A program made the translations under genes and the position numbers. 64,000 nucleotides of DNA from an uncultured Candidatus Saccharibacteria bacterium (lineage in GTDB: Bacteria > Patescibacteriota > JAQUNI01): contig CAZKRD010000001.1 in NCBI GenBank assembly GCA_964555185.1, positions 303,272 through 367,271 of the forward strand, in the 5' to 3' direction. Positions 3 to 57,457 of the stretch are shown here, one piece after another (position 1 is the stretch's first letter; every line of letters starts with the position of its first letter). Under the pieces are notes generated by a model. It was given only the letters and a program-made list of their open reading frames with translations. It searched no databases and was not told where the DNA came from.

Positions 3-371
3 GCAAAGACTCTGCTCGTCCAGGCGGATCGCGATTTTGTTTTCGCGGTTGTCCCCGGACACAAGTATTTAGATGTTTCTAAGTTAAAAAAACTGATTAA
101 CTTAGAGAGGAAGAAAGCGGGAGAGGCGCCGGTTAAGAAATTAAATATCGCAACCGAAACTCAAATCAAAAGAAGCATTACCAAGAAAGTGGGAGCACTG
201 GTGCCCTTTGGTTCGCTTTATCGCAAGCAGACTTATGTTGATCGCCTGCTTCTTAAAAATAAAAAAGTCATTTTGAACGCGGGCAGTTTTGAGGAGTCAA
301 TAAGGATCACTACTTCAGTTTACAGGAAAGTAGAACAGCCTATCGAAGGATCATTTTCTAAAATAAAATAA
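3..371 (+). CDS. YbaK/ProX-like aminoacyl-tRNA deacylase domain protein (5' partial; the frame is open from base 3)
   Basis: The frame translates from base 3 as ...GALVPFGSLYRKQTYVDRLLLKNKKVILNAGSFEE... The GALVPFG and VxLNAGS motifs are typical of YbaK-type deacylases. The start lies upstream of the window. Confidence 0.5.
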   Translation, partial: AKTLLVQADRDFVFAVVPGHKYLDVSKLKKLINLERKKAGEAPVKKLNIATETQIKRSITKKVGALVPFGSLYRKQTYVDRLLLKNKKVILNAGSFEESIRITTSVYRKVEQPIEGSFSKIK

Positions 372-2492: not shown

Positions 2493-2573
2493 ATTTCCAA
2501 TTTCCAAACATTTACCTTTTCAGCAGTCTAGAAAATTGGAAATTTACGATTGATCGAGTAATTATTTTTAATT
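2455..2573 (+). repeat. Heptamer tandem repeat (aatttcc, 6 or more copies) spanning the GT1 stop, with inverted words downstream
   Basis: aatttccaatttccaatttccaatttccattgaatttccaatttccaaac ... gaaaattggaaattt. It encodes the protein C-terminus ...RNFQFPISNFH. Confidence 0.6.
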
Positions 2574-6965: not shown

Positions 6966-8345
6966 ATGCTGACCAAAACAAAGATTTGCGTCATTTTTAG
7001 CCTCTTTTCCATTTTAACCGTTCCTAAAATCAGTTTTGCTTTTGACAAGAACAACCTGCTTTCTGATTCTGAACTTTATTCCTGCAACTTAAGGAACGCG
7101 GGTTCGGTTCAACGTTTTTTAGAGTCAGAAAACAGCTGTCTTGCTTCTTATCGTGATGATGGGGAAAAGGCCTCGGAGATTATCGCTAATACTTACAATG
7201 AATACAACATCAGTACTTGCTGGATTCTGGCCACTCTTCAGAAAGAACAGTCTTTAGTTACGAGCAGGGAGGCAAGGAGTGAGCGGGCCTTGAATTTCGC
7301 GATGGGCTTTGCCTGCCCTTCCGGCGGGAACTGCGATGAGCGCTACAGCGGGTTTAAAAAGCAGGTGGAGTCAGCGGCATGGCAGATCCGCAATCGCTAT
7401 CTTGTCCACCCCGAATGGTATTCTTTCCGAAAAGGCAAGGAGACTGAGACCGAGGACGGGCATACGGTTCGTCCTGCGAATAAAGCAACAGCCGTGAATT
7501 ATAACTATACCCCGGTGGTGGGAGACGGAATAACCTCTGGCGCGAATTACAATTTTGTTCTCTCCTGGAAGAAGTGGCTCTCTTGGTTTGTGACCGTGCA
7601 TCCGGCCGGCAACCTCCTCCAGGCTTCGGGTTCCAAAGCAATTTATCTGACTGTCTATGATGATGACGAAGTAAAGAAGATGCTGATTACTAACTGGCCG
7701 GTGTTTACAGCGCGCGGCTACAGTTACCGGAAAGTAATCAAGATTGATCAGAGCGAGATTGACAGCTATAGGAATTCGAATTTAAGGATGACTTATCCCA
7801 ACGGCACCCTGATTCAGGGTTCGGGGCCGGCAATCTATGCGGTTGAGAATAACCGCCGGCGCCACATCTCAAGCTTGAATGTGATGAAACAATTAGGTTA
7901 TTCCTCGCGGGATATTAGAAAGCTTTCTGATCAGGAATTAGCGGCAATTCCTGGAGGCCCGGGGATCCTTTCTGGAAGCAAGAAGCTTGACGGCACCCTG
8001 ATTCGGACAAAAGATAATCCCGCGATCTATATTTTAGAGGACGGCAGACGGCGGCACATTGCCGAATGGAATGTGTTTAAAGCTAATGGTTATTCCTGGA
8101 GTGATGTCAGGATCATTACAGACGCGGAAATGGCGAGCTACCCGCCAGGGAAGAGCATGGATCTAGACGACGGTCTGCTGGTTAAATCTTCCGACCGGCC
8201 AGGGGTCTGGGTGGCAGAGAACGGTTTACTGCGTGCGGTTAACAACATTAATTCCTTTAATAACCTAGGTTATAGCTGGGGTTGGATCAAAACCGTGTCT
8301 AGTCAGTTTATCGACAGCGTGCCGAAGGGAGCGCCGTTGGAGTAA
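6966..8345 (+). CDS. Secreted protein with signal peptide and three tandem ~55-aa C-terminal repeats (hypothetical)
   Basis: N-terminal signal peptide MLTKTKICVIFSLFSILTVPKISFA. Repeats GTLIQGSGPAIYAVENNRRRHISSLNVMKQLGYSS / GTLIRTKDNPAIYILEDGRRRHIAEWNVFKANGYSW / GLLVKSSDRPGVWVAENGLLRAVNNINSFNNLGYSW. Confidence 0.5.
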   Translation: MLTKTKICVIFSLFSILTVPKISFAFDKNNLLSDSELYSCNLRNAGSVQRFLESENSCLASYRDDGEKASEIIANTYNEYNISTCWILATLQKEQSLVTSREARSERALNFAMGFACPSGGNCDERYSGFKKQVESAAWQIRNRYLVHPEWYSFRKGKETETEDGHTVRPANKATAVNYNYTPVVGDGITSGANYNFVLSWKKWLSWFVTVHPAGNLLQASGSKAIYLTVYDDDEVKKMLITNWPVFTARGYSYRKVIKIDQSEIDSYRNSNLRMTYPNGTLIQGSGPAIYAVENNRRRHISSLNVMKQLGYSSRDIRKLSDQELAAIPGGPGILSGSKKLDGTLIRTKDNPAIYILEDGRRRHIAEWNVFKANGYSWSDVRIITDAEMASYPPGKSMDLDDGLLVKSSDRPGVWVAENGLLRAVNNINSFNNLGYSWGWIKTVSSQFIDSVPKGAPLE

Positions 8346-8462
8346 TTACCAATTTACAAGGACCAATGTTCAATCAAATCCCAATTTTCAAATAGATTTA
8401 ATTTTCAAACAGTTTGAACATTTAGTCATTGGTTATTGAAAATTGATTGAAAATTGGAAATT
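8346..8462 (+). repeat. Heptamer-periodic palindromic upstream element (word aattttc / gaaaatt)
   Basis: ccaattttcaaatagatttaattttcaaac ... cattggttattgaaaattgattgaaaattggaaatt ends at the GT2 start. An 80-bp stretch is almost identical to part of 9333-9486. Confidence 0.6.
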
Positions 8463-9332
8463 ATGAATAATCTTTTTATTGTCATTATCAATTACAAAAC
8501 ACTGGATTTGCTCAAGCAGTGTTTAAATTCCATCTTAAAAGCTCATCCGGAACTTCTCCGCCAGATTTTGGTTATTGATAATTTTTCTCAAGACAAGACT
8601 CTTGAGATGATGGAAAAAGATTTCCCCGAGATTAAGGTTTTGGCTTCCCAGTACAACAGCGGTTTTGGCGCGGCGATTAATTGGGGAGTGAATAATGCCC
8701 CGGAAGGAGTTCGTTATTTTCTTTTCTTAAACCCGGATATTATTTTAAGGGGCCAGGCGATTAAGAAGATGGTTGAATTTATGGATGCTCATCCTAACGT
8801 CGCCTTGATTGGTCCTGGACTTTTCAATCCTGATTTGACGATTCAGAGTTCCTGCCGTCGCTTTATCAGTCCAAAATTGACTTTGTATCGTCGTACTTTC
8901 TTAGGCAGGTTTGGTTTTGCTAAAAAAGCGCTTAAGAAATTTTTAATGAAAGATATTGACCACAGCAAAGTCCAGGAGGTGGATTGGATTTTTGGCGCTT
9001 GTATGATGGTGAGAGCAGAGGCTGTTTCCGAAGTCGGCTTGATGGATGAACGTTACTTTCTGTATTTTGAAGATATGGACTGGTGCCGCCGCTTTTGGGA
9101 AAAAGGCTGGAAGGTCTGTTATTACCCAGAAGCGCAGATGATTCATTACCATCGCCGCGACAGCGCCCAGGAGTCTGGTTTTTCCGCTCTTTTCAATCGC
9201 GCGGCAAGGATCCATATCAAGAGCGCGTTTAAGTATTTTGTTAAGTACTTCGGGATTCCAAAGCCTCGGCGGGAGAAGATGAAAAAGGAAATTTTAAGAG
9301 CAAGGGTTCTCGATAAGACAGCAGAGGTATAA
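8463..9332 (+). CDS. Glycosyltransferase family 2
   Basis: NLFIVIINYKTLDLLKQCLNSI...VIDNFSQD is a GT2 N-terminus. The ORF-track start at 8454 is TTG, so the ATG at 8463 is used. Confidence 0.75.
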   Translation: MNNLFIVIINYKTLDLLKQCLNSILKAHPELLRQILVIDNFSQDKTLEMMEKDFPEIKVLASQYNSGFGAAINWGVNNAPEGVRYFLFLNPDIILRGQAIKKMVEFMDAHPNVALIGPGLFNPDLTIQSSCRRFISPKLTLYRRTFLGRFGFAKKALKKFLMKDIDHSKVQEVDWIFGACMMVRAEAVSEVGLMDERYFLYFEDMDWCRRFWEKGWKVCYYPEAQMIHYHRRDSAQESGFSALFNRAARIHIKSAFKYFVKYFGIPKPRREKMKKEILRARVLDKTAEV

Positions 9333-9486
9333 TTTTCAATTTTCAAATCTCAATTTTCAATCAAGTCCCAATTTTCAAATAGATTTAATTTTCAAACCTG
9401 CGAAAATGGTTTTGTTTGAAAATTTATTCATTGGTTATTGAAAATTGATTAGTAAATTGGTACTTGAAAATTGAAAATTAACTAAC
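9333..9486 (+). repeat. Heptamer-periodic palindromic upstream element (aattttc repeated at least 6 times, then gaaaatt 4 times)
   Basis: aattttcaattttcaaatctcaattttcaatcaagtcccaattttcaaatagatttaattttcaaac ... ttgaaaattgattagtaaattggtacttgaaaattgaaaatt. Confidence 0.6.
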
Positions 9487-16535: not shown

Positions 16536-17615
16536 ATGAATATTCTATTAACCGGCGGCGGCACGGGCGGACATACGATTCCGCTTGTTGTTGTTGCCGC
16601 TGAATTAAAAAAAAGAAGAAAGGACTTGGTTCTTTTTTGGATTGGTGGAGAAGGGATTGAAGAGCAGGCAGCGCGGGAAAATAATATCGCTTTTGGAAAG
16701 ATAGTTGTCGGGAAATTTCGCCGCTACTTTTCTTTTTCTAATCTGCTTGATTTTTTTAAAATTCCGATTGGATTTTTCCAAAGTTTCTTTTTGATTTTGG
16801 GCTTTAAGCCCGATCTTGTGTTTAGTAAAGGAGGTTATGTCAGCTTGCCTGTGGTTTTCGCGGCCTTCCTCTTGCGCAAAAAGATTATCATCCACGAATC
16901 TGATTTGAAACCGGGTCTAGCGAATAGAATCGGAGCGAGGTTAGCTTCCAAGGTTTTGTTAGGATTTAAAAAAGGGGCAGACGAAAAGCAGCATATCTTT
17001 GTTGGCAATCCAATAAGAGAAGAGATTTTACAGAGAGATAAAGCAGAAGGTTGTCGTTTTTTTAATCTTGATCCAGAGAGGAAAACAATTTTGATTCTGG
17101 GCGGCAGTCAGGGCGCGCGTTTTCTCAATCAGTTAATTACAAAAGCAAAAACGAACTTGGGAGAATATCAGCTTATTCACCTTGTTGGACCAAAATATCC
17201 TCTGCCCAAAACAGGAGAAAATTACAAGCCCTATAACTGGCTTGCGGCAAAAAGAATCGGCCAGGCTTATGCTGCGGCTGACTTTGTGATTTCCCGGGCC
17301 GGGGCTAATACTTTGGCTGAAATTGCGGCCTGCGGCAAGCCATCAATCCTAATCCCAATGCCGCGATCAGCAGCCGGCCACCAGCTTGCCAATGCCAAGG
17401 TGTTTGAGAGAGAAGGAGCGAGTATTGTTTTAGAACAAGAAAGTCTATCGCGAGATAAGTTGATTAAGATTGTGAAAAGTTTATTAGCTAATCAAGAGAG
17501 GTTAAAAGAGATGGGTTTGGCTGCTCAAAACCTGGCTTGTCCTGATGCGTCATCTCGGATTGTTTCCTCTATTTTGAATAATGTTACAAATTTGAACGAT
17601 CGTGAAGATTTGTAA
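16536..17615 (+). CDS. murG: UDP-GlcNAc--lipid I N-acetylglucosaminyltransferase MurG
   Basis: The NILLTGGGTGGHTIPLVVVAAEL N-terminus is the G-loop of MurG. 359 aa. Confidence 0.9.
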   Translation: MNILLTGGGTGGHTIPLVVVAAELKKRRKDLVLFWIGGEGIEEQAARENNIAFGKIVVGKFRRYFSFSNLLDFFKIPIGFFQSFFLILGFKPDLVFSKGGYVSLPVVFAAFLLRKKIIIHESDLKPGLANRIGARLASKVLLGFKKGADEKQHIFVGNPIREEILQRDKAEGCRFFNLDPERKTILILGGSQGARFLNQLITKAKTNLGEYQLIHLVGPKYPLPKTGENYKPYNWLAAKRIGQAYAAADFVISRAGANTLAEIAACGKPSILIPMPRSAAGHQLANAKVFEREGASIVLEQESLSRDKLIKIVKSLLANQERLKEMGLAAQNLACPDASSRIVSSILNNVTNLNDREDL

Positions 17616-17628
17616 CGCCCAAATTACA

Positions 17629-19394: not shown

Positions 19395-20348
19395 ATGTCT
19401 ACTAAGATTTATCAAAAATTAAAGAAAGAACTGAATTCCGTTAAAAAAGATGAAAGTTTGCGCGAGCACACTAATTTTGAAATCGGCGGGCCGGCAAGAT
19501 ATCTTTTTGAAGCTCGAAAGAGTGAGGATATTGTCCGCGCGTTTGGGGTCGCTCATGATTTGAAAATACCCTATTATATTTTGGGCGGCGGCAGTAATCT
19601 TTTGGCTAGTGACCGAGGATTTCCCGGTCTTGTGATTAAGCTTAATAATAATAATCTAGATTTAAAGAACAATCAGATTGTTTGTGGCGCGGGAGCGGCT
19701 TTTTCGGATTTAATTAAATTTTCTCTGGATAATGATCTGGAAGGCTTAGAGAATTTTATCGGCATCCCCGGCACTGTCGGTGGAGCAGTTTACGGCAATG
19801 CTGGCGCCTTTTTTAGATCAATCGGTGATTTTGTGTCTTTCGTTAAGGCATTAAATTCTAAAGACGCGAAGACTAAAGAATATAGCAGGGAGGAATGCCA
19901 ATTTGTTTATCGCGGCAGTGTTTTTAAAGAGAACAGAATGATTGTTCTGGAAGCGGGTTTGAATTTAAAGAAGATTACAGACAAAAAAAATCTTCTTGTA
20001 AAAATAGAGAAGATTAAGAAAATTCGTGAGAAACATCCTAAAGAAAAGTGCGCTGGATCTATTTTTAAGAATATTGAATTTAAAGATAACAAAGAGATTA
20101 CAAAAAGAGTGCCTGATGACTGTGTTCGCTTCTCTGAAATTAAGGTTGCCTGTTTAATTGACAAATTAGGCTTAAAAGGCAAAAATATTGGCGGAGCTCG
20201 AATTTCGCAAAAAAACGCTAATTTTATTGTCAATACAGGCAAAGCAAAGGCAAAGGATGTCTTGGGGCTGATTAAATTGATTAAAAAGAGAGTGAAGAAA
20301 GAGTATGGGTTGAATTTAGAAACAGAGATTCAGTTTGTCGGATTTTGA
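19395..20348 (+). CDS. murB: UDP-N-acetylenolpyruvoylglucosamine reductase MurB
   Basis: FAD-binding domain: NFEIGGPARYLFEA...YYILGGGSNLLASD. 317 aa. Confidence 0.85.
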   Translation: MSTKIYQKLKKELNSVKKDESLREHTNFEIGGPARYLFEARKSEDIVRAFGVAHDLKIPYYILGGGSNLLASDRGFPGLVIKLNNNNLDLKNNQIVCGAGAAFSDLIKFSLDNDLEGLENFIGIPGTVGGAVYGNAGAFFRSIGDFVSFVKALNSKDAKTKEYSREECQFVYRGSVFKENRMIVLEAGLNLKKITDKKNLLVKIEKIKKIREKHPKEKCAGSIFKNIEFKDNKEITKRVPDDCVRFSEIKVACLIDKLGLKGKNIGGARISQKNANFIVNTGKAKAKDVLGLIKLIKKRVKKEYGLNLETEIQFVGF

Positions 20349-20371
20349 TTAAAACTTTTAATTTTTTTCAA

Positions 20372-20417
20372 CCTGAGGACTTCGGCTGAGCTCAGTCGAA
20401 CGCCCTCGGGACGAAGG
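20372..20417 (+). repeat. 46-bp palindromic element, copy 1
   Basis: cctgaggacttcggctgagctcagtcgaacgccctcgggacgaagg. Its reverse complement matches 57257-57302 at 45 of 46 positions. It lies between murB and secA. Confidence 0.8.
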
Positions 20418-20451
20418 TTTAGTTTGTATTTTTGAGATTTGACTTTTATTT

Positions 20452-23148
20452 ATGTCTTTTCTAAGCAAATTTTTCGGTGATCCCAATGAGAAGGTTTTAA
20501 AAAATTTACAGCCTCTCGTGGATAGGATCAATAAGCTTGAATCAAAATTTGAGGGTTTTTCTGATTCTGATTTTCCGCGCTTCACGAAAAAGTTAAAAAA
20601 GAAAATCAAAGCGGGAGAAAAATTAGATCAGCTTCTGCCTCAAGCTTTTGCCGCCTGCCGCGAGGCCGCGAAAAGGACCCTGGGCGAACGGGCCTATGAT
20701 GTTCAGGTTTTAGCGGGAATTGTTTTGCACCAGGGCAGGATCGCGGAACAGAAAACAGGCGAGGGCAAGACTTTGTCTGCGACGATGCCGGTTTATTTGA
20801 ATGCCCTAACCGGCCGCGGCACGCATGTGGTAACAGTCAATGATTATTTGGCGCGCCGGGATACAGAATGGATGGGCGCGGTTTACGACTTTTTAGGATT
20901 ATCCGTGAGCTGTATTCAGCATGATCAAGCTTCTCGTTATCAGACTCGACGGCAAGAAAAAAAAGAAACCCATGATCAAATTGAGATGGGAGATGAGATA
21001 GATTCCGGTTTAGTTGAGATTACTCGCCGCGAGGCTTACGAGTGTGATATTACTTATGGTACAAACAATGAGTTTGGTTTCGATTATCTGCGGGACAATA
21101 TGGTCTGGGATAAGGCCCAAATCGTGCAGGGCAAGCTTAATTTCGTGGTGATTGATGAGATTGATTCGATCTTGATTGATGAAGCGCGGACTCCGCTGAT
21201 TATTTCCGCGCCGGACACGGAATCCACGGATCAGTATCAGGAATTCGCGCGGATTGTGCCGCGTTTGCGCGAGAACACTGACTATAATGTTGATGAAAAG
21301 ATGCGCGCGGTTACCTTGACCGATAAGGGGATTGGGAAACTGGAAGAGATTTTAGGGGTAGAAAATATCTATCAAGAAAAAGACGTAGCCACGGTCCATC
21401 ATATCGAGGAGGCTTTGCGCGCTCATGCCCTGTTTCGCCGGGACCGTGATTATGTGGTTAAAGAGGGCGAGGTTATGATTGTGGACCAGTTTACCGGCCG
21501 CTTGATGCCTGGCCGACGTTATTCAGGGGGTCTGCATCAGGCGATCGAGGCAAAAGAGAGAGTAGAAGTGAAGCGTGAAAGCAAGACTTTAGGCACAATC
21601 ACTTTCCAAAATTATTTCCGGCTTTATAAGAAATTATCCGGGATGACCGGCACCGCCGCCACGTCAGCAGAGGAATTCAGCAAGGTTTATGATCTGGAAG
21701 TGGTGGTGATTCCGACTAATGAGCCGATGGTTCGTCGTGATTTAGCGGATTTGGTTTATAAGAATGAGGAAGGCAAATTTAAGGCTGTAGTCTCGGAGAT
21801 CAAAAAGCGGCATCAAAAAGGCCAGCCTGTGCTCGTCGGTACGATTTCAATTGACAAAAACGAATTGCTTTCAGGGATGCTGGAGCGTCGGGGCGTGCCC
21901 CACGAAATTTTAAATGCCAAAAACCACGGTCGAGAGGCAAAGATTATCGCCAAAGCCGGTCAGCGCGGATCGGTGACCATTGCCACCAATATGGCTGGCC
22001 GCGGTACAGACATTAAACTGGGGGTAGGTGTTACAGGCTTGGGCGGCCTCCATGTTTTGGGCACGGAACGTCATGAGGCGAGGCGGATTGACAACCAGCT
22101 GCGCGGACGTTCTGGCCGCCAGGGCGATCCTGGTTCTTCCCAGTTCTATGTTTCTTTAGAGGATGATTTGATGCGGATCTTCGGCGGCGAGAGGATAAAA
22201 GGGCTGATGGACCGTCTCCGTCTGCCCGAGAATCAGCCGATTCAAAATAAGATATTAAACCGCTCGATTGAAGGGGCCCAGAGTAAGGTAGAAGGCAATA
22301 ATTTTGATATCAGAAAACATTTGGTTGAATATGATGATGTTTTAAACAAACAGCGAGGAGTATTTTACAAAAAACGGGAAGAGATTCTGGATGATGGTGA
22401 AATCCTACGTAAGTCAATCTTGACAATGATTGAAGAAGAGATTGAAAAGATAGTAGTTAACCACACGATGGGTGATAAGGAAGATAATTGGGACTTTAAA
22501 GAAATTTGTGAGAATATGTATTCAATCCTGCCTTTGGATAAAAAAGACGGCATGGAGCAAAGAACCTTGCGCGCGAAACTCGAGGGTATGGCTTCGCCTT
22601 CAAAAGCAGGCAGTAAGGCCCGAACCATGATCATTGAATATTTAGTTGCTTTAGCTTTTAAGATTTATAAAAAGCGGGATCAGGAATTGACCAAAAAAGG
22701 TATGCGCCAAGTAGAGCGGGCAGTTGCCTTGCGGATTATGGATACGCTCTGGACCGAGCATCTTGATTTGATGGAGTATTTGCGCCAGAGTGTTCGTCTG
22801 CGCGTTTACGGCCAGAAGGATCCTCTGGTTGAGTATAAACGGGAAGGGTATCAATTGTTTCAGAAACTTCTTTTAAAAATCAAAGCGGATATTGTGAATA
22901 TGATCTTCAAGGTCAGTATGATTATGCCGACTGCTTCCAGTTTAGCCCAAAACAATTTTGTTACGAGGGGAGCGGATAAGCAGTATGGCGGAGTGACCGC
23001 TTCCGGATCCGGGGACAGAGGCGTTGCGGCCGAGCCCGCTTTGGTTCGTAAGCGCGATAAGGTTGGCCGCAATGATCCTTGTCCCTGCGGCAAGATTAAT
23101 CCGGAAACAGGAAAGCCAATGAAGTACAAAAAATGCTGCGGAAGATGA
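20452..23148 (+). CDS. secA: Preprotein translocase ATPase SecA
   Basis: 898 aa. DEAD motor motifs QLLPQAFAACREAAKRTLGERAYDVQ, GEGKTL and TGRGTD. The C-terminal zinc-binding tail is CPCGKINPETGKPMKYKKCCG. Confidence 0.95.
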   Translation: MSFLSKFFGDPNEKVLKNLQPLVDRINKLESKFEGFSDSDFPRFTKKLKKKIKAGEKLDQLLPQAFAACREAAKRTLGERAYDVQVLAGIVLHQGRIAEQKTGEGKTLSATMPVYLNALTGRGTHVVTVNDYLARRDTEWMGAVYDFLGLSVSCIQHDQASRYQTRRQEKKETHDQIEMGDEIDSGLVEITRREAYECDITYGTNNEFGFDYLRDNMVWDKAQIVQGKLNFVVIDEIDSILIDEARTPLIISAPDTESTDQYQEFARIVPRLRENTDYNVDEKMRAVTLTDKGIGKLEEILGVENIYQEKDVATVHHIEEALRAHALFRRDRDYVVKEGEVMIVDQFTGRLMPGRRYSGGLHQAIEAKERVEVKRESKTLGTITFQNYFRLYKKLSGMTGTAATSAEEFSKVYDLEVVVIPTNEPMVRRDLADLVYKNEEGKFKAVVSEIKKRHQKGQPVLVGTISIDKNELLSGMLERRGVPHEILNAKNHGREAKIIAKAGQRGSVTIATNMAGRGTDIKLGVGVTGLGGLHVLGTERHEARRIDNQLRGRSGRQGDPGSSQFYVSLEDDLMRIFGGERIKGLMDRLRLPENQPIQNKILNRSIEGAQSKVEGNNFDIRKHLVEYDDVLNKQRGVFYKKREEILDDGEILRKSILTMIEEEIEKIVVNHTMGDKEDNWDFKEICENMYSILPLDKKDGMEQRTLRAKLEGMASPSKAGSKARTMIIEYLVALAFKIYKKRDQELTKKGMRQVERAVALRIMDTLWTEHLDLMEYLRQSVRLRVYGQKDPLVEYKREGYQLFQKLLLKIKADIVNMIFKVSMIMPTASSLAQNNFVTRGADKQYGGVTASGSGDRGVAAEPALVRKRDKVGRNDPCPCGKINPETGKPMKYKKCCGR

Positions 23149-25672: not shown

Positions 25673-25695
25673 TTGAACAAAACAAAAACGAAAGA

Positions 25696-25729
25696 GTTAC
25701 AAATTTAGCCGATCGGTCAGTTTTGTAAC
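25696..25729 (+). promoter_or_regulatory. Operator-like palindrome GTTACAAA-N-GATCGG-N-TTTGTAAC, copy 1 (upstream of the sigma-r4 HTH gene)
   Basis: gttacaaatttagccgatcggtcagttttgtaac. A promoter candidate TTGACT-(15-17)-TAGTAAT follows at 25737-25765. Confidence 0.45.
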
Positions 25730-26926: not shown

Positions 26927-27230
26927 AAATAGAAAGTTTAAATCCTAAATCCTAAATCCTAAATCCTAAACAATTTCCCGCCTTCGCTCACGAGCTTCGG
27001 CGGACAGGCCCGCCTTGCCCCGCTTCGCGAGGTGAGCCGCAAAGCGAGGCAGGCAAAGTTCAAATGTTCAAAACCCGGCCGTACGCCTTGGCGTAGGCAA
27101 GGATTTGTTTAGAGTTTAGGCGTTGGGATTTAGGATTTTTTGAACCTTTAAGAATCCTATTTGTTTTAGATTGGGCGGTTGTGGTATAATGTCTATAAAG
27201 ATATTGTTCAATAAATCAAAATAAAACAAA
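26927..27230 (+). repeat. Heptamer-periodic palindromic element (aatccta x4 ... tttaggatttaggatt) enclosing a GC-rich structured core
   Basis: aatcctaaatcctaaatcctaaatcctaaa ... ccgccttcgctcacgagcttcggcgg ... ggcaggcaaagttcaaatgttcaaaac ... tttagagtttaggcgttgggatttaggatt. Confidence 0.6.
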
Positions 27231-30437: not shown

Positions 30438-31004
30438 ATGAAAAAAGATCGTGAAACCTATAAAAATCTGGTCAGGGCTTTTGCCGGCGAGTCAATGGCG
30501 CGCAACAGGTATGAATTTTTTGCTGTTTTAGCGGAGAACGAAGGTTTGCGTTCAGTAGCAAGAATCTTTCGTGAGACAGCGGACAATGAAAAAGCGCATG
30601 CCGAGCGCCATCTCAAGTTTTTGAAAGGTAAAGTGGGCGCCATGGGTGAACTCGGCTTGGACAAATTGGGTGATACAAAGTTTAATCTGGTCCAAGCGAT
30701 TGCCGGCGAGCATTATGAGGCAGCGGCTATGTATCCTGGATTTGCCAAGACAGCGCGAAGAGAGGGTTTTTCCGAGATCGCCAAGGGTTTTAAAGAGATC
30801 GGCGAGGTGGAGGAAAAACACGAGGAGCGCTATAAGTCGCTTTTGAAAAGACTAGAGGATGGGAATATGTTTAAAAGCGTGAAAGTCGTAAAGTGGAAGT
30901 GCTTAAACTGCGGCTATGTCCATACTGGCAAAACCGCACCCAAAACCTGCCCGGCCTGCGCCTTCCCGGAAGGATGGTATGAGCTATCCTGTCGGAACTA
31001 TTAG
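30438..31004 (+). CDS. Rubrerythrin (ferritin-like diiron domain plus C-terminal rubredoxin-like CxxC..CxxC)
   Basis: N-terminus [20 protein letters not shown], ExxH motifs, and C-terminal [10 protein letters not shown]...CPACAFP. The RBS is AGGAGG. Confidence 0.85.
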
Positions 31005-31171
31005 CTCCAATCACCAAGATACAATAACCAAGTTACAAACAATAACCAATTATCCAATCACCAATCTGCCTTGCCCCGTCTCGCCGAGGCAGACGACAGA
31101 CAGGTAACCAAACCGTTTGATTATTGGTTATTGAAATTTGTTTGTTTCTTGTTTCTTGGTTATTGGTTATT
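31005..31171 (+). repeat. ~140-bp heptamer-periodic palindromic element (word caccaataacca / tggttattggtg), copy 1, with a 40-bp GC-rich insertion
   Basis: About 85% identical to 34191-34322. The internal hairpin is caatcaccaat...aaccaaaccgtttgattattggttattg. Confidence 0.7.
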
Positions 31172-31564: not shown

Positions 31565-34190
31565 CTGCAAAGGCGCGGGTTGTTCTCAATGCGGGAACAG
31601 AGGTGTTTTTTTGCAGACAGAAAAAGGGATTTTTTATTGGGGGCCATCCCGGGAGGATCGTTATCTTCGCTGCCAGAGATTCAGTTTGATTCTAAACAAT
31701 TTTTTGGATTATTTGGTTTTGTTTTTCGGCATTGCCGCTTTGATTTACCAGGCCGTAATTTTTATTTGGGAGCGAGGGTTTTTTGCCTCTCCGCTTTTGT
31801 GGGCGGGAATTTTAGCCTTGGCTTTTGCCGGCTTTCGCTTTTCCCGCAGGAAGGAAAAGCAAAAAAGACTGAAATTTTCCAAAGAGCCTTCTCCAGAAAT
31901 TAAAGCTAAGAGTTTGAGCGGTTTGCTCCAATCCAAAGACCTTCTGGATGTCCAGCCTTTTTTAAGCCGGCCGGTCAAATTAACCCTGATCAAAGCCTGG
32001 GCCCAGGCGGGCGGCACCTTGGAGCCCTTTTTTATTTTTAAAAATCTTCTCTCCTGCCGAAAAATAGAAGAACTTATTTTGAGATTAGGTTTGGACTTTG
32101 GAGACTTAAATAAAAAATGGCGCAAGCAGACTCGCCATTTTAAAAGAGAGGCTGGAGTTGGATTTAATCTTGTTTTTAAAAAGCTTGTTTTGGAGAGCTT
32201 GGCCTTTGCCCTATTTCTAGAAAGGGAAACAATTTCGCCTTTGGAGTTTTTTCTAGGCGCGGTCAAAGCAGAGCCGAAACTGCTGGCTCTGTTTCAGGAT
32301 CAAGGTTTAGACCTAAAAGCCCTGTATTATACGGCTCAATGGATTTACAACAAAAAGGAGTTTGTCGGGAGATGGAAGAAATTCTCCGCTCGCGCCAGGT
32401 TCAAGCCAAAAGGAGTAATGAATCGGGCCTATACTTCGCGGGCAACACCGATTTTGGATAGAGTCAGTGATGACTTGACTGTCCAGGCCAGAGCGGGAGC
32501 TTTGCCTTTGCTTGTTAATCGTAAAAAAGAGATTGACGAGATTTTAGTGAATTTAAAGCAGGCAGACGGCAACGCAATTTTAGTGGGCAAACCGGGAGTG
32601 GGCAAATCCGCGATCGTTTATGGCCTTGCTAATCTGATGGCGGCAGAAGAAGTCCCCGAGATTTTGCAGGATAAACGCTTGGTCAGTTTAGATGCAGCTT
32701 CTCTGTTTTCTGTGTCAGGAGAGGGTGAGAGGCCGATTGTTATTTTAAAAAAGATTATTTCTGAAATAATCAAATCCGGCAATATTATTCTTTTTATTGA
32801 TAACATTTCTAACTTGATTGGACTGGGCCGGGGCGGCAGCGGCTTGGACGCGGCAGAGATTGTGATGCGCGTTTTGCCCAAACCCACGGTTCATGCGATT
32901 GGGATATCAACGGAAGAAGATTACCATCAGGTTTTGGAAGCAAGAGGGGATTTTACAAGAAGGTTCCAGATCATCGAAGTAGCAGAACCGGACTCTAATT
33001 TAACATTGGAAATTTTGGAAAGCAGTTCCAGTTTAATTGAATACCAGGAGAACATTTTCTTTACTTATCCTGCCCTAGATCAGGCAATTGTTTTATCCCA
33101 ACAATATATTTATGACAGTTACTTGCCAGCTAAAGCGCTGAACCTCTTGGCTGATGCCGCTTCTTTTGCTCATCGCAAAGGGAAATTAAGGGTTGTCCGC
33201 GGTGAAGATGTAGTTCGCTTAGTAGAGGAAAGGGTTAAGGTGCCGATCTCTAAAGCTACAAAAGAAGAAGGAAAAAAATTACTGCACCTAGAAGAGGAGA
33301 TGCACAAAAGAATTGTTGACCAAGAGGAAGGAGTTGGAATGGTAGCGGAAGGATTGCGCAGGGCAAGGGCGGGAATGCGGGAAAAGAAAAGGCCGATTGT
33401 TTCCCTGCTTTTTGCCGGGTCCACCGGGGTGGGTAAGACCGAGACAGCGAAAACTTTAGCCGAGATCTATTTTGGTTCGGAAGAGCGGATGATCCGCTTG
33501 GATATGAGCGAATATCAAGCCCCAGATTCGATTAATAAGCTGATTGGCGTCTCGGCAGGCCATGCCAGCGAGGGACGAGGTTATCTTACCGCGGCGGTGC
33601 GGAAGAACCCTTTTTCTTTAATTCTTTTGGATGAGCTCGAAAAAGCCCATCCTGATATTTTGAATGCTTTTCTACAGGTGGTTGAAGACGGCAGACTAAC
33701 TGATGGCCGCGGCCGGACTATTGATTTTACGAACACGATAATTATTGCTACTACTAACGCGGGAACGGATGAGATTACGCAAGCGATTAAAGGCGGCGTG
33801 AAATTAGCGCAAATCAAAAGACAGTTTATTGAGAATGTCTTGACCAAGCATTACCGTTTGGAATTTCTCAATCGTTTTGACGGTATTGTTCTCTTTAGAC
33901 CTTTAGCTCCAGAACACGTAGTTGCGATCGCTGGTCTTATGCTTGAGAAAGTGCGCAAACGACTGCTTGCCAAAAATATGCATTTTTCCTATACAAAAGA
34001 GGCGGCAGAAGACTTGGCAAAAAAGGGCTTTGATCCTGTTTTTGGCGCCAGACCCTTGCGCCGTTTGATTCAGAATACCGTGGACAATGCGCTAGCCAAA
34101 CACATTCTTTCCGGAGAACTCGGCCCTCGCGATGTCGCGGTTTTAGAAGCAGGAGGCAGAATCACAATCAAACAGGCAGAAGAAATATAG
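31527..34190 (+). CDS. ClpB/ClpC-family AAA+ chaperone with unusual N-terminal zinc ribbon and 2 TM helices
   Basis: 887 aa. N-terminal CPNCKGAGCSQCGNRG, then two hydrophobic helices. D1 P-loop LVGKPGVGKSAIVYGLA; D2 P-loop AGSTGVGKTETAKTLA with Walker B LILLDELEKAHPD and sensor GARPLRRLIQ. The D1 Walker B reads ILFIDNISNLIG, i.e. DN where DE is expected. Confidence 0.8.
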   Translation: MAFSKTRILHCPNCKGAGCSQCGNRGVFLQTEKGIFYWGPSREDRYLRCQRFSLILNNFLDYLVLFFGIAALIYQAVIFIWERGFFASPLLWAGILALAFAGFRFSRRKEKQKRLKFSKEPSPEIKAKSLSGLLQSKDLLDVQPFLSRPVKLTLIKAWAQAGGTLEPFFIFKNLLSCRKIEELILRLGLDFGDLNKKWRKQTRHFKREAGVGFNLVFKKLVLESLAFALFLERETISPLEFFLGAVKAEPKLLALFQDQGLDLKALYYTAQWIYNKKEFVGRWKKFSARARFKPKGVMNRAYTSRATPILDRVSDDLTVQARAGALPLLVNRKKEIDEILVNLKQADGNAILVGKPGVGKSAIVYGLANLMAAEEVPEILQDKRLVSLDAASLFSVSGEGERPIVILKKIISEIIKSGNIILFIDNISNLIGLGRGGSGLDAAEIVMRVLPKPTVHAIGISTEEDYHQVLEARGDFTRRFQIIEVAEPDSNLTLEILESSSSLIEYQENIFFTYPALDQAIVLSQQYIYDSYLPAKALNLLADAASFAHRKGKLRVVRGEDVVRLVEERVKVPISKATKEEGKKLLHLEEEMHKRIVDQEEGVGMVAEGLRRARAGMREKKRPIVSLLFAGSTGVGKTETAKTLAEIYFGSEERMIRLDMSEYQAPDSINKLIGVSAGHASEGRGYLTAAVRKNPFSLILLDELEKAHPDILNAFLQVVEDGRLTDGRGRTIDFTNTIIIATTNAGTDEITQAIKGGVKLAQIKRQFIENVLTKHYRLEFLNRFDGIVLFRPLAPEHVVAIAGLMLEKVRKRLLAKNMHFSYTKEAAEDLAKKGFDPVFGARPLRRLIQNTVDNALAKHILSGELGPRDVAVLEAGGRITIKQAEEI

Positions 34191-34322
34191 TTACAATCAC
34201 CAAGAAACAATAACCAAGTTACAAACAATCATCAATCATTCAATCACCAATAACCAAACCGTTTGGTTATTGGTGATTGGTTATTGAAATTTGTTTGTAC
34301 CTTGTTTCTTGGTTATTGGTTC
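34191..34322 (+). repeat. ~140-bp heptamer-periodic palindromic element, copy 2 (direct repeat of 31005-31171)
   Basis: caatcaccaataaccaaaccgtttggttattggtgattg is a perfect 17-bp inverted repeat. The two copies flank the small-membrane-protein plus ClpB/C-like module. Confidence 0.7.
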
Positions 34323-36167: not shown

Positions 36168-36473
36168 ATGGCAAATGTGACAGCTCAGCTTGATAAAGAA
36201 ATTTTAAATTTAGGACAGGAAAGACAGAACAAACATCGATTGAAATTAGAGTTCGAGCGGGACATCGCTGATTTAGGGAGGAAAATTGAAGAAAACAGGA
36301 AGAAATATGAGGAGGAAATGAAAAAAGCGGAATCAAAACTGCGAAGAGAGAGAAAGGACTTGGAGCGGGATTTAGACAAAATAGTGAGAGAGATTAGAGG
36401 GATGGATCGTGAAATTGAAAACTTAGCTCAAAAATTAAGGGATTTTCCCAAGGGACACAATGGAATCTTCTGA
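36168..36473 (+). CDS. Small coiled-coil protein (hypothetical)
   Basis: 101 aa, highly charged K/E/R heptads. The stop overlaps the alaS start. Confidence 0.35.
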   Translation: MANVTAQLDKEILNLGQERQNKHRLKLEFERDIADLGRKIEENRKKYEEEMKKAESKLRRERKDLERDLDKIVREIRGMDREIENLAQKLRDFPKGHNGIF

Positions 36474-38373
36474 GCTGAAAAAAAAGTTTTTGCGTTTTTT
36501 TAGAAATAAGGGTCATGTGATCATCCCCTCGGCTTCTTTGATTCCAGAGCATGATCCGAGTGTTTTGTTCACAAGCGCGGGAATGCATCCTTTAGTTCCC
36601 TATCTTTTGGGCGAACCGCATCCGGAAGGCCGGAAATTAACTGACGTTCAAAAATGCGTTCGGACGGGCGACATTGACGTTGTGGGTGATGCCTGGCATT
36701 TGACTTTTTTTGAGATGCTCGGGAATTGGAGCCTTGGTGACTATTTTAAAGAAGAGGCAATTGTAATGGCTTGGGAGTTTTTAACCTCTCAAAAGTGGCT
36801 GGGCCTTGATCCGGAAAGGCTTTCTGTTTCTGTTTTTGCAGGTGACAACGATGCTCCGCGCGATAATGAAGCGGCCAAGATTTGGCAAAAGGTCGGCATG
36901 CCAAAAAAGAGAATCTATTATTACCCCAAATCTGAAAATTGGTGGGGTCCAGCCGGCAAGATTGGGCCTTGCGGTCCGGATACGGAAATATTTTTCGACA
37001 GTGGGAAAGAGCCTTGCGGAGAAAAGTGCGAACCCAAATGTATTTGTGACAAATACACCGAGATCTGGAATTTGGTTTTTATGCAATACGATAAAAAGAT
37101 CAAAGATCAACCTTCGAGTCCTGAGCCTCAGGTCGAGGGAAAATCAAAGATCAAAAATGCAAATCAAAGATCAAAAATGCAAGAAATTAAGACTATTTAT
37201 GAATATGTTCCGCTTAACCAGAAGAACATTGATACAGGAATGGGGCTTGAGCGGACAATCGCGATTTTAAACGGAAAAGATAATATTTATCAGACCGATT
37301 TATTTAAACCCTTGATTGATAAGCTCACAGAGCTTTTAGAGGGCCGGATAATAAAAAAAGACAGCGAGGATTTAAGGTCGATGCGGATTATTGCCGACCA
37401 TATCCGCGCCGCGGTTTTTATTTTAGCCGAAGGGATCACCCCTTCCAACCTTGATCAGGGCTATGTTTTGCGCCGTTTAATCCGAAGAGCAATCAGAAAA
37501 ACAAGCTCGCTTAAACTGGAGAAAGGATCTCTTTTAAAACTTGCCAAGATTGTGATTGATCAATACAAACAGGATTATTCAAGGCTCTTTGAGAACAAAG
37601 ATTTTATTCGCAAGGAGCTTTCCCGCGAGGAGGAGAAGTTTAAGAAGCCGCTAAAATGGGTGGAGCAGTATCGGAGCGATCTTCGCGAAGCGATAGAGCA
37701 TGATCTGATTAAGAAAATCAAAGATGCGCCGATCCTCTCGGCTTCCGGCGAGGCTTCCGGCCAGTATGTTTATGAAAATTATCAGACCTACGGCGTGCCT
37801 CCTGATTTGAGCGAGGAGATAATTCGCGAGCTTGGTTTGAAATACAACAAGCGGGAATTTGAGCGAGCTTTTAAAAAACACCAGGCCCTTTCACGGAAAG
37901 GGAGCGCGGAGAAATTTCAAGGCGGGCTTGCTGACGCCAAAGAAGCGACAATCAAATACCACACCGCGACCCATCTTTTGCATCAAGCGCTTCGTCAGGT
38001 CTTGGGAGATCATGTGGAACAGCGAGGGAGCAATATTACGGCCGAGCGCTTGCGCTTTGACTTCTCCCATCCCAAGAAAGTGGAAGCAGAAGAACTAAAA
38101 GAAGTAGAAGAGATTGTGAACAAAAAGATTAAAGAGAAACTTTCCATCAAATGCGAAGAGATGAGCCCGGAAGAAGCAAAAAAGCAGGGTGCGATAGGAC
38201 TCTTTGGCCGCAAATACGGCGATAAAATCAAGGTTTACACAATAGGAGAGTTCTCTAAAGAAATCTGCGGCGGCCCGCATATCAAAAACACCAAGGAACT
38301 TGGCAAATTCAAAATCATCAAAGAAGAATCCTCCTCCGCAGGCATCCGCAGAATCAAAGCGACTTTAGAATAA
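36460..38373 (+). CDS. alaS: Alanine--tRNA ligase (short form, no C-terminal C-Ala/DHHA1 domain)
   Basis: Class II catalytic core FTSAGMHPLVPYLLG and WHLTFFEMLGNWSLGDYFK, IDTGMGLER, and the editing-domain HTATHLLHQAL motif. 637 aa, versus about 870 for a full-length AlaS. It contains an in-frame repeat-derived insertion at 37097-37185. Confidence 0.85.
   Translation: MESSELKKKFLRFFRNKGHVIIPSASLIPEHDPSVLFTSAGMHPLVPYLLGEPHPEGRKLTDVQKCVRTGDIDVVGDAWHLTFFEMLGNWSLGDYFKEEAIVMAWEFLTSQKWLGLDPERLSVSVFAGDNDAPRDNEAAKIWQKVGMPKKRIYYYPKSENWWGPAGKIGPCGPDTEIFFDSGKEPCGEKCEPKCICDKYTEIWNLVFMQYDKKIKDQPSSPEPQVEGKSKIKNANQRSKMQEIKTIYEYVPLNQKNIDTGMGLERTIAILNGKDNIYQTDLFKPLIDKLTELLEGRIIKKDSEDLRSMRIIADHIRAAVFILAEGITPSNLDQGYVLRRLIRRAIRKTSSLKLEKGSLLKLAKIVIDQYKQDYSRLFENKDFIRKELSREEEKFKKPLKWVEQYRSDLREAIEHDLIKKIKDAPILSASGEASGQYVYENYQTYGVPPDLSEEIIRELGLKYNKREFERAFKKHQALSRKGSAEKFQGGLADAKEATIKYHTATHLLHQALRQVLGDHVEQRGSNITAERLRFDFSHPKKVEAEELKEVEEIVNKKIKEKLSIKCEEMSPEEAKKQGAIGLFGRKYGDKIKVYTIGEFSKEICGGPHIKNTKELGKFKIIKEESSSAGIRRIKATLE
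37141..37180 (+). repeat. In-frame 20-bp tandem duplication (aaatcaaagatcaaaaatgc x2) inside alaS
   Basis: Part of an insertion of about 90 bp (37097-37185) that encodes ...QPSSPEPQVEGKSKIKNANQRSKMQEIK... in the AlaS loop preceding IDTGMGLER. Confidence 0.7.
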
Positions 38374-38433: not shown

Positions 38434-38505
38434 CGGGGATTGGCCTAATGGTAAGGCGCACGATTCGGGTTCGTGAGACTCCGGGTTCAAATCCCGGATC
38501 CCCGA
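38434..38505 (+). tRNA. tRNA-Pro (anticodon CGG); CCA not encoded
   Basis: Hand-folded. Acceptor stem CGGGGAT/ATCCCCG (7 bp). D arm gcct-aatggta-aggc. Anticodon stem cacga/tcgtg with loop ttCGGgt (U33, G37). Variable loop agact. T arm ccggg-ttcaaat-cccgg. Discriminator A. Confidence 0.8.
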
Positions 38506-38515
38506 CAAAGGTGAT

Positions 38516-38588
38516 GATCAAGTCTTGCTTTTTGGTATTTTAAGAAAAACTAAAACATCAAAATATAAGATTTGATCTCATTTATCCT
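38516..38588 (+). repeat. Island repeat family A, copy 1 (immediately 3' of tRNA-Pro)
   Basis: gatcaagtcttgctttttggtattttaagaaaaactaaaacatcaaaatataagatttgatctcatttatcc. Related copies start at 41545, 45031 and 51906, with a partial copy at 46001. Confidence 0.6.
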
Positions 38589-41544: not shown

Positions 41545-41632
41545 AATTGATGGTCAAATTTTACTTTCTGACATTTTAAGAAAGATTAAAACATCAAAAT
41601 ACAAAATTTAAGCCTATTTATCTGGCCCCATT
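41545..41632 (+). repeat. Island repeat family A, copy 2
   Basis: aattgatggtcaaatttt...cattttaagaaagattaaaacatcaaaatacaaaatttaagcctatttatc. It shares the gattgatggtcaa prefix with copy 4 and starts 6 nt after the DUF2075 stop. Confidence 0.55.
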
Positions 41633-41781
41633 CTCTCCCTTTGTCATCTCCGACTTGATCGGAGATCCAGGGTTTTAGAGCAAGAATCCTGGATTCCCGC
41701 TTTCGCGGGAATGACAAGCGTGTCGTGGCTTCACAGGATTCCTTCCAAGTTTCTCCGACTATGGAGTATTTGTACACATAT

Positions 41782-41810
41782 AAAAAAACAGAGTCGACCC
41801 CATTTTGCAC
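41782..41810 (+). repeat. Repeat family C motif AAAAAACAGAGTCGACCCCATTTTGCAC, copy 1
   Basis: Related copies start at 44390, 45004, 47440 and 54951; a degenerate second copy lies at 41820-41845. Confidence 0.55.
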
Positions 41811-41927
41811 TAGCTAGGGAAAAACAGAGCCGGTCCCATTTCATCAATTTGGTGCGGGGGGAGGTGAGATCTAGGGTTGGAATCTCCAAAAATGTTATAA
41901 TAAAGATAAGTTTTTCAATAAATAAGC

Positions 41928-41987
41928 AAAAATGGGGTTAGGTCTTGAATAGTGAATTGTTAAAATCAGAAATGTCTCCATTTTTTT
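41928..41987 (+). repeat. MITE-like element family B, copy 1 (forward, 3' truncated)
   Basis: aaaaatggggttaggtcttgaatagtgaattgttaaaatcagaaatgtctccattttttt. Inverted termini: AAAAATGGGG / CTCCATTTTT. Confidence 0.6.
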
Positions 41988-41999
41988 AAAAATTTCGTT

Positions 42000-42801: not shown

Positions 42802-42821
42802 TCTTCTATTGCATTTGAGGG

Positions 42822-42878
42822 GAAATGGGATCAGGTCTTGAATAGTGAATTGTTAAAATCAGAAACGTCCCCGTTTTT
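42822..42878 (+). repeat. MITE-like element family B, copy 2 (forward)
   Basis: ggaaatgggatcaggtcttgaatagtgaattgttaaaatcagaaacgtccccgttttt. Confidence 0.6.
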
Positions 42879-42916
42879 CTTAGCCCTAAAGTTTTAATTG
42901 CGAAATATATTCTCGT

Positions 42917-43390: not shown

Positions 43391-43401
43391 GATGAGAAAT
43401 C

Positions 43402-43436
43402 AAATGGGGACGTTTCTGATTTATTTGGTACAGGTC
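43402..43436 (-). repeat. MITE-like element family B, copy 3 (reverse orientation, partial)
   Basis: aaatggggacgtttctgatttatttggtacaggtc. Confidence 0.4.
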
Positions 43437-43482
43437 GGAAGATCAGAATCAACTAAGATGAAATGAATCAAAAAATTAATCT

Positions 43483-57256: not shown

Positions 57257-57302
57257 CCTTCGTCCCGAGGGCGTTCGACTGAGCTCAGCCGAAGTCTTCA
57301 GG
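57257..57302 (-). repeat. 46-bp palindromic element, copy 2 (inverted orientation)
   Basis: On the + strand it reads ccttcgtcccgagggcgttcgactgagctcagccgaagtcttcagg, with the internal near-palindrome CTTCGGCTGAGCTCAGCCGAAG. It lies upstream of ftsA. Confidence 0.8.
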
Positions 57303-57457
57303 TCGAGGAAAATTCAATAAAAATTAAAAAATAAGAAATAAACAAAAAATAAGAAATAAAAAACAAAAAACACTCCCTATTATTTGCCAAACTGAAACAA
57401 AAGTTGTAAAATGATCATAGAAGCGCTGTTTTTACAGTATTGTTTTTGGTTATCAAT

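Follow-up and report, generated by a model that had tools for sequence, protein, structure and literature searches.

The question raised by this locus is what kind of repeat stands in the spacer between murB and secA and returns, inverted, almost 37 kb further on. The stretch analysed, called the window below (64,000 nucleotides of contig CAZKRD010000001.1, deposited as an uncultured Candidatus Saccharibacteria bacterium), is the end of a 707-kb (706,972 bp) scaffold of a metagenome-assembled genome (MAG; ENA ERZ23486238), and its SecA and FtsA are nearest to Parcubacteria and 'Torokbacteria' proteins. At 20372-20417 of the forward strand lies the 46-mer CCTGAGGACTTCGGCTGAGCTCAGTCGAACGCCCTCGGGACGAAGG, whose reverse complement, altered at a single base (G/A, element position 6), is found at 57257-57302. 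When the window was shuffled 100 times with its dinucleotides preserved, no match to it appeared, so that two copies are observed where none is expected, and the near-identical inverted pair described by the original prediction is borne out. That prediction left open whether the pair is a REP-like (repetitive extragenic palindromic) or MITE-like (miniature inverted-repeat transposable element) repeat, or rather a bidirectional terminator or attenuator. Our analysis favors the first possibility: the repeat is probably a non-autonomous, REP-like mobile palindrome composed of two nested parts, apparently selfish DNA. The repeat is a palindrome found at scattered places, the orthologous sites compared in a relative lack it, a further copy lies within alaS, and its core has at least 116 exact matches elsewhere.

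The core of the element, CTTCGGCTGAGCTCAGTCGAA, is a near-perfect palindrome with one G·T position. Either strand of the whole unit folds into a single long imperfect hairpin, with predicted energies of -22 to -26 kcal/mol as RNA (z = -2 to -4) and -9 to -10 kcal/mol as DNA; the sequence and the folding of both strands agree with the near-palindromic core and the G-U pair anticipated for it. Both copies are intergenic, also as anticipated. Copy 1 occupies the spacer between murB (19395-20348) and secA (20452-23148), and copy 2 the one between an open reading frame (ORF) of 174 amino acids (56638-57162) and ftsA (about 57458-58720). All four genes are on the forward strand, which makes copy 1 sense and copy 2 antisense to local transcription. 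A repeat search had returned an inverted repeat of 77 nt with 90% identity, whose extension beyond the element is due to the T-rich, low-complexity flanks.

The extent of the unit was defined by copies from other contigs. Ten loci were obtained when JGI metagenomes were scanned for TGAGCTCAGTCGAACGCCCT (collected loci are cited here by their L numbers). Three of them, the SDBT01 contigs L131, L133 and L135, carry the composite element in unrelated gene contexts. These copies have the form (C)CCTCGACCTGAGGA...CGAAGG, with a length of about 52-53 nt. Because they extend the conserved 5' end, which is (C)CCTCGACCTGAGG, both window copies were redrawn with the boundaries given in Table 1; the 5' arm of copy 1 has decayed by transitions. 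The 46 bp first proposed thus lie inside a real unit, but the conserved unit measures about 52 nt, reaches further on its 5' side, is a nested composite and has a core common to many phyla.

The two parts of the composite can be separated. The outer part is an imperfect palindrome of 29 nt, CCCTCGACCTGAGG^CTCAGGACYCGAAGG, which folds into a stem-loop of its own and at whose centre (^) the second part sits; the latter is a 26-nt unit consisting of the core CTTCGGCTGAGCTCAGTCGAA with one nucleotide added on its 5' side and four on its 3' side, with a stem of 8-9 bp, one G·T pair and an AGCT loop. A search with the centre of the element removed found the uninterrupted CCCTCGACCTGAGGCTCAGGACYCGAAGG at two places, at 37111-37139 (-) of the window and at 232-260 (-) of L131. 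The L131 copy is near-identical to that of the window and shares its contig with a filled copy. Filled forms (the two window copies, L131, L133 and L135) and empty forms differ by the 26 nt ACTTCGGCTGAGCTCAGTCGAACGCC between CCTGAGG and CTC, and the composite is therefore a 29-nt palindrome that carries a 26-nt palindrome at its apex. The related fragment that had been noticed inside alaS is this 29-nt palindrome without the central 26 nt. All seven copies of the lineage are flanked on both sides by T-rich heptamer-type repeats on the element's forward strand. Judging by the sequences compared, the 29-nt palindrome appears to be specific to the Torokbacteria-like Parcubacteria lineage, and dispersed there.

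Two of the window sites can be compared with those of a close relative. The empty copy lies in frame within the 637-codon alaS ORF (36460-38373), which is antisense to the element and intact. The alignment of the encoded alanyl-tRNA synthetase (AlaRS) to solved structures (PDB) breaks at the corresponding loop (query 216/251 vs E. coli AlaRS 223/228), and exactly there the closest relative's orthologue (P0242; 91% identity) lacks 31 residues. The net in-frame insertion is 93 nt, made up of the palindrome and its AAAGATC heptamer flanks. This relative (JGI 3300033148 contig Ga0366832_1001435; L120/L137) has a SecA 94% identical to ours and the same gene order, and its murB-secA spacer measures 66 nt, without the element, vs 103 nt in the window. 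Neither the 26-mer nor the 29-mer is present in the approximately 31 kb of its syntenic sequence. Two of the three window sites, murB|secA and alaS, are thus empty in the relative; the ftsA site falls outside this comparison, the nearest FtsA contigs beginning inside ftsA (L124) or being non-syntenic (L125).

Table 1. Positions of the composite element, its parts and the enlarged AlaRS loop in the window.
Feature	Position	Strand	Remarks
Composite element, copy 1	20366..20417	+	Between murB stop and secA start; 5' arm decayed (TTTCAAC for CCTCGAC)
Inner 26-nt unit ACTTCGGCTGAGCTCAGTCGAACGCC, copy 1	20379..20404	+	Set by uninterrupted outer elements and by filled/empty pairs elsewhere
Composite element, copy 2	57257..57308	-	Antisense to both neighbours; 5' arm CCTCGACC intact; one G-to-A in outer stem
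Inner 26-nt unit, copy 2	57270..57295	-	Identical to that of copy 1
Uninterrupted ('empty') 29-nt palindrome CCCTCGACCTGAGGCTCAGGACTCGAAGG	37111..37139	-	Inside alaS, antisense; reads PSSPEPQVEG
Enlarged AlaRS loop	37096..37209	+	38 codons vs 7 in the close relative; AAAGATC/AAAAATGC heptamers and 29-nt palindrome

The 26-mer also behaves as a discrete insertion outside the window lineage. We excised the core together with 0-4 nt on its left and 0-6 nt on its right and searched for the rejoined flanks across the collected loci. A single contig, L116, has both the filled form GGGGTG[AGGCTTCGGCTGAGCTCAGTCGAAGT]CAAGTCCCC and the empty form GGGGTGCAAGTCCCC, with 26 of 26 flanking positions identical, within otherwise near-identical repeats of about 70 nt; in L111 (Syntrophales) a host repeat of the same type is filled in the opposite orientation. 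Two other hosts are CCCTTCGACAAG^CTCAGGG in L032 and GTGAG^CTCAGCC in L018. The insert is 26 nt long in the window lineage and in L116/L111, which are the two cleanest pairs, as well as in L018; L032 and L027 are best restored by excising 27 nt, and L077 by excising 24 nt, with a mismatch. In L116, L111, L032, L018 and the window lineage a small palindrome receives the insert at a G^C step in or close to its centre, and none of the filled/empty pairs has a target-site duplication. A rule by which GAGCTC is always the target was considered and dropped for that of a G^C step at a hairpin apex, the test with fixed boundaries being weak. A gapless search for other GAGCTC-centred palindromes returned the core type only, and a looser regular expression returned 17 variants. 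A presumed relation to the repeats that yield 'FDKLRANG/LRQAQGER' peptides was borne out only in part, by the L032 host.

The core is also carried by a MITE of about 190 nt, found with high identity in MAGs labelled Desulfobacterota, Ignavibacteria and 'Pseudomonadota' (L005, L008, L014, L029, L040, L054, L057, L063, L071, L094, L104, L107, L112 and L117). This MITE ends in the terminal inverted repeats GTSCTTCGATTC, with a matching CTWAG on both sides. At a second site, GTGCTG^AGTGAGC, it optionally holds GAGCTC-centred palindromes of 28-30 nt, nested up to three deep.

The distribution of the core reaches far beyond the Parcubacteria. An exact search for the 21-mer CTTCGGCTGAGCTCAGYCGAA found it in at least 116 stretches of GTDB species-representative genomes, where by our own calculation about 0.5 matches would be expected by chance in 596 Gb; the original prediction was to be given up if only two copies existed, with no transcript termination or processing at either, and the repeat exists beyond these two. 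The record titles of the listed matches include some 12 phylum-level names: many Patescibacteria lineages, Desulfobacterota/Thermodesulfobacteriota, Anaerolineae and other Chloroflexota, Methylomirabilota, Planctomycetota, Nitrospirota, Ignavibacteria, Bacteroidota, Gammaproteobacteria, Caldisericota, Elusimicrobiota-like bacteria and others. The loci vary in GC content from 34 to 65%, and some are located on contigs or chromosomes of 0.6-5.6 Mb. All genome matches listed are MAGs, and many are near contig ends. The core is often present in several copies per MAG, with at least 11 matches on 8 contigs in Anaerolineae N2_102, for example.

Conservation extends to bases that were not part of the searched pattern. 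Among 111 loci with distinct flanks, G occupies position -2 in 106, A position -1 in 94, and C position +3 in 107, giving a 5' flank D-G-A and a 3' flank G-C-C-Y, and at the wobble position T outnumbers C by 104 to 7. The unit has a fixed asymmetry, one strand having an inner G·T pair and an outer A·C mismatch, the other the reverse arrangement. About 75% of the scorable core matches are outside crude ORF calls. Relative to the neighbouring genes no orientation is preferred: of 69 scorable loci, 25 have both genes in the same orientation as the core, 21 have both in the opposite one and 23 are mixed.

Several other collections were consulted. A variant, GTTCGGCTGAGCTCACGTCGAAGCCC, is present in a megaplasmid of the cultured cyanobacterium Kovacikia minuta CCNUW1 (plasmid pA, NZ_CP083583.1, about 1145773-1145798; L138 150-176), nested between GGGTTTAAC and TAAACTGCCC, and it is the sole match found outside MAGs. 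A match in a Rhizobium plasmid has a coding-like context and was set aside as probably due to chance. A scan of viral contigs and a phage BLAST gave no matches. Searches of the literature by the DNA, RNA and derived peptide strings did not find the sequence, and a keyword search gave nothing relevant. No Rfam family was found in the window (at gathering thresholds), in the 301 nt around copy 1 (E <= 10) or in 20 related loci. The 10-mer AGCTCAGTCG of the core (window 20380-20400) also occurs in the D-arm of many bacterial tRNAs, probably by coincidence; neither ARAGORN nor Rfam called a tRNA at 20380-20400. Two independent Logan assemblies of the secA region (L002 1-60 and L003 1-60, equivalent to window 20392-20451) start just after the core centre, at TCAGTCGAAC. 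Since an independent contig begins inside the core palindrome, the element is present in the reads and breaks assemblies.

In one AT-rich MAG labelled 'Gammaproteobacteria', an identical cassette of about 80 nt (L064 5015-5095 and 6615-6695; L078 around 2527-2547, minus strand) consists of a leader containing TTGACT, the core hairpin, AAAGGAG and ATG. It is located directly 5' of rpsS, of rplP and of another gene, within the S10 ribosomal-protein operon.

One alternative is an intrinsic, possibly bidirectional, terminator or attenuator, in which the GC-rich hairpin and a following U-rich tract would stop the murB or the secA/ftsA transcripts. The stability of the RNA hairpin is compatible with this role, the forward-strand stem is directly followed by TTTAGTTTGTATTTTT in copy 1 and by TTTATTTTTTAATTTTT in copy 2, and four of the seven lineage copies stand just 3' of a gene on the same strand (murB, the glycosyltransferase gene and the ORF of 714 amino acids of L131, and rpsF of L133). 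However, a consensus terminator scan was empty at both intergenic sites, and only the forward strand has the T-rich tail; in copy 2 and in the alaS copy, both antisense, the sense reading gives A-rich flanks and no U tract. An efficient terminator at copy 1 is implausible because the secA ATG lies 35 nt downstream with no promoter-like site in between, and a stop at that point would shut off an essential gene. The close relative manages without the murB|secA copy, the alaS copy is coding and in frame, and some family members stand between cistrons of a ribosomal-protein operon (L064). Finally, the same 26 nt recur from phylum to phylum, a constancy of sequence that a terminator does not need. 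The empty scan, the antisense copies and the lack of an orientation bias over the 69 loci tell against termination or attenuation as the nature of the element, and we consider this explanation unlikely. Weak termination or mRNA stabilization by the forward-strand hairpin and its T-rich tail is possible as a side effect.

A strand-specific structured or cis-regulatory RNA, such as a leader of secA and ftsA or a stability or processing hairpin bound by a conserved protein or RNase, would account for the G·U wobble and the A·C mismatch conserved at fixed positions. It would also fit the members found immediately 5' of start codons (rpsS and rplP in L064; L078, L082, L089, L096), and in the murB-secA spacer the element would be transcribed. 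Against this, the two window copies face the gene downstream in opposite orientations, the family members precede unrelated genes, and Rfam gave no match even at E <= 10. The orthologous secA leader of the relative, whose SecA is 94% identical, lacks the element. Both strands carry one wobble and one mismatch, and the asymmetry therefore singles out no RNA strand; the absence of an orientation bias at 69 loci likewise argues against a strand-specific RNA role, which we regard as improbable.

It is highly improbable that the element acts as a site in duplex DNA, either as the palindromic operator of a dimeric regulator or as a pair of inverted recombination sites that flip the 37-kb segment. 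The 22-bp near-perfect palindrome at its centre and the position of the two inverted copies, 36.8 kb apart and upstream of secA and ftsA, would suit such a function. Yet the half-sites differ at fixed positions and the orientation of the asymmetry is conserved, as one would not expect of a site bound by a symmetric dimer; over its left part the segment is collinear with the relative, which has neither sites nor repeats; no recombinase or regulator recurs nearby; copies stand inside a gene and nested in other repeats; and some MAGs have numerous copies (at least 11 matches in Anaerolineae N2_102). That the element arose in assembly or library preparation, for instance as a synthetic oligonucleotide or a chimeric join carried into MAGs, is hardly credible: the matches listed come from MAGs, with no isolate genome among them, and many are near contig ends, but the element is interior to the 707-kb scaffold and to other pieces of 0.6-5.6 Mb, contigs or chromosomes, has come out of separate studies, independent runs and more than one assembler (the Logan breaks inside the palindrome being those expected of a genuine repeat), has lineage-specific and complementary flanks, is in frame in an intact alaS ORF, and has a variant in the finished megaplasmid of the cultured Kovacikia minuta.

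The reading that we prefer, a REP-like mobile palindrome, can be set out as follows. The 26-nt unit, A-CTTCGGCTGAGCTCAGTCGAA-SGCY, would land at a G^C step in the apex of other small hairpins and leave no duplicated target. In the window lineage, the 52-nt composite would now propagate as one unit (two copies in the window and three in SDBT01), and the uninterrupted 29-mer would also propagate by itself (alaS, L131). As to the means, we tentatively suggest that the unit could move as a hairpin of single-stranded DNA (ssDNA), handled in trans by an enzyme of the HUH/Y1 type or a comparable one, which would recognize the conserved irregular hairpin by its G·T pair and A·C mismatch at fixed positions and insert the unit into exposed hairpin loops. 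Effects on the murB/secA or ftsA transcripts, by a stable hairpin or a weak forward-strand terminator, would then be side effects. Other possibilities are that broken palindrome centres are repaired with another family member as template, or that the unit has an unrecognized host function. The 26-mer itself, A-CTTCGGCTGAGCTCAGTCGAA-GCCY, may perhaps be a previously undescribed, extremely small mobile element of a dozen phyla, including the candidate phyla radiation (CPR), that builds 'Russian-doll' palindromes at apical G^C steps, although we hold this stronger statement with considerable doubt.

Several results weigh against mobility. No transposase domain was found among the window proteins (Pfam, gene tables), and at the 116 loci no protein family is repeatedly encoded within 3 kb of the core, for which reason we call the element non-autonomous. 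About 73 kb of the 707-kb scaffold were covered for copies, and they contain two composites and one simple copy; no further ones occur in the 8.7 kb that separate the window from the end of the scaffold. Across the family, rejoined junctions with at most one mismatch from GAGCTC number 29 vs 19 expected, and enclosing stems of at least 6 bp number 23 vs 15 +/- 2.8, both in weak tests. Flank complementarity, tested crudely by the energy of whole sequences, fell short of significance (p = 0.15). Because these family-wide statistics are modest, the insertion claim is based on the specific filled/empty pairs and no universal target rule is proposed. The invariance of the core among the matches is partly built in by the exact-match scan, and the taxonomic labels depend on binning, the genome matches all being MAGs. 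A host function that has so far escaped recognition could also account for the exact identity between phyla, and loss from the relative, rather than gain in the window lineage, stays formally admissible.

If the 26-mer is indeed a small mobile element, the usual view of such repeats would have to be widened. REP-like repeats are usually seen as lineage-specific passengers tied to a vertically inherited REP-associated tyrosine transposase (RAYT), whereas the 26-mer is cross-phylum and has no transposase nearby; this would imply either a widespread trans-acting ssDNA enzyme or a host-independent mechanism, with frequent horizontal spread. Were mobility confirmed, the mobilizing enzyme could be found by asking which protein families accompany the 26-mer from genome to genome. 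Selfish DNA would prove to be tolerated in minimal CPR genomes even within an essential aminoacyl-tRNA synthetase, and the element would explain why MAG contigs break repeatedly and contain spurious short ORFs. For annotation, the hairpin 5' of secA does not warrant a regulatory label without expression data.

The window holds other repeats as well. Heptamer-type tandem repeats (for example AATTTCC, AAATCCT, CAATAAC/TTGGTTA and AATTTTT) compose the intergenic spacers at 2459-2526, 8343-8476, 9330-9480, 26940-27138, 31002-31171, 34188-34317, 57309-57375 and 62180-62306. The GC-rich palindromes are always located within T-rich heptamer repeats, and in alaS the AAAGATC heptamers arrived together with the palindrome. 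A second, unrelated palindrome family, GTTACAAA..GCCGATCGG..TTTTGTAAC, of about 41 nt, has three copies with 71-100% identity (17576-17616, 25689-25729 and 54410-54450), one overlapping the murG/murC junction and two intergenic. An AT-rich direct repeat of 75 nt has four copies with 69-100% identity (38512-38586, 41548-41622, 45019-45093 and 51908-51982), the first of which begins 7 nt after a tRNA gene (38434-38505). The region 41780-47470 has a low GC content (37-39%) and is dense in short repeats, including AAAAAACAGAGTCGACCCCATTTTGCACT four times, a 56-nt pair (41930/42823) and an exact 44-nt pair (44306/45804). These are set among small genes (NUDIX, DUF559/MTES_1575 endonuclease-like, GNAT, VTT-domain protein) that follow a Schlafen-like helicase gene. 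Possible interpretations of the region are a variable island and a group of shared promoter/terminator modules.

Among known elements, bacterial MITEs (Correia/NEMIS, RUP, ERIC, Nezha) measure 70-300 bp, have terminal inverted repeats of 15-30 bp and duplicate their target site. Our repeat resembles them in being non-autonomous, dispersed, intergenic, hairpin-forming and perhaps able to affect the transcripts of its neighbours, and in other phyla a classical MITE of about 190 nt is among the hosts of the core; the repeat's own units, however, measure 26, 29 and 52 nt, with neither separate terminal inverted repeats nor a target-site duplication. The palindrome-associated transposable elements (PATE) derived from IS200/IS605 have distinct left and right subterminal hairpins, insert 3' of a fixed tetra- or pentanucleotide without target duplication, and come with a TnpA in the genome. 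The 26-mer lacks a target duplication and is preceded by G in 106 of 111 loci, yet it has a single hairpin, and no TnpA was seen in the sequence examined. The mobile GC clusters of yeast mitochondria, short GC-rich palindromes in AT-rich DNA that are sometimes nested or within genes and whose mobilizing mechanism is unknown, offer an analogy only, since they are eukaryotic organellar elements. Rho-independent terminators differ from the repeat in the empty scan, in the antisense position of copy 2 and of the alaS copy, and in the missing orientation bias.

The Rickettsia palindromic elements (RPEs) are selfish DNA found in frame in protein-coding genes (summarized in PMC3733652). The alaS insertion has the same arrangement: the 29-nt palindrome and its heptamer flanks add 31 in-frame residues to a surface loop of the essential AlaRS and are absent from the 91%-identical orthologue. 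It differs in its CPR host and in being the one intragenic copy seen, and the likeness drawn here is one of arrangement. REP doublets forming hairpins (REPINs) and bacterial interspersed mosaic elements (BIMEs), associated with RAYT (Y1 HUH) transposases, are hairpin repeats thought to move as ssDNA in trans (PMC3116915, PMC2817692, PMC3333891). Like them, our repeat has an irregular hairpin, which is a plausible recognition feature, and inserts without target-site duplication; it differs from them in that no PF01797-type, RAYT or Y1 gene is present in the window or recurs near the 116 loci, and in the lack of a GTAG tag. REP-RAYT systems have been described as lineage-specific and vertically inherited, whereas the core is shared across phyla.

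The comparison with REPs is the closest. As a class they are mainly extragenic and number tens to thousands per genome. They are palindromes of 20-40 bp with a GTAG or CGTC (TGTC/CCTC) tag (Di Nocera et al. 2013, PMC3733652). The CGTC type has a stem of 8-9 bp starting with two A·T pairs, a loop of 4-5 nt and a 3-nt tail; it has no dedicated transposase, and its superfamily includes dRS3 of Neisseria and RPE-4/RPE-6 of Rickettsia (PMC3733652). Some REP families are found inside small palindromes or inside genes, those of tRNA synthetases included (PMC3733652). The 26-mer, TTCGGCTG-AGCT-CAGTCGAA, closed by C-G and ending in a CCY tail, has the architecture of the CGTC type, and the repeat as a whole matches the general description, being an imperfect palindrome of 20-40 nt that forms a stem-loop and is dispersed and, by the crude ORF calls, mostly extragenic. 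On the other hand, neither end of the 26-mer has a GTAG or CGTC (TGTC/CCTC) tag in the 111 loci; the outer 29-mer begins with CCCTC, resembling the CCTC variant, but its stem is unlike the CGTC pattern. The window copies are singletons nested in another palindrome, not head-to-head dimers, and the copy number looks low, with three related copies in about 73 kb. Published families belong mainly to Proteobacteria, while the identical 26-mer occurs in MAGs labelled as about 12 phyla. Because it has neither the tag nor an association with RAYT, we do not file the 26-mer as a member of the REPs. They are the closest described kind of element, and the cross-phylum identity of the 26-mer, CPR included, exceeds the descriptions given of REP families.

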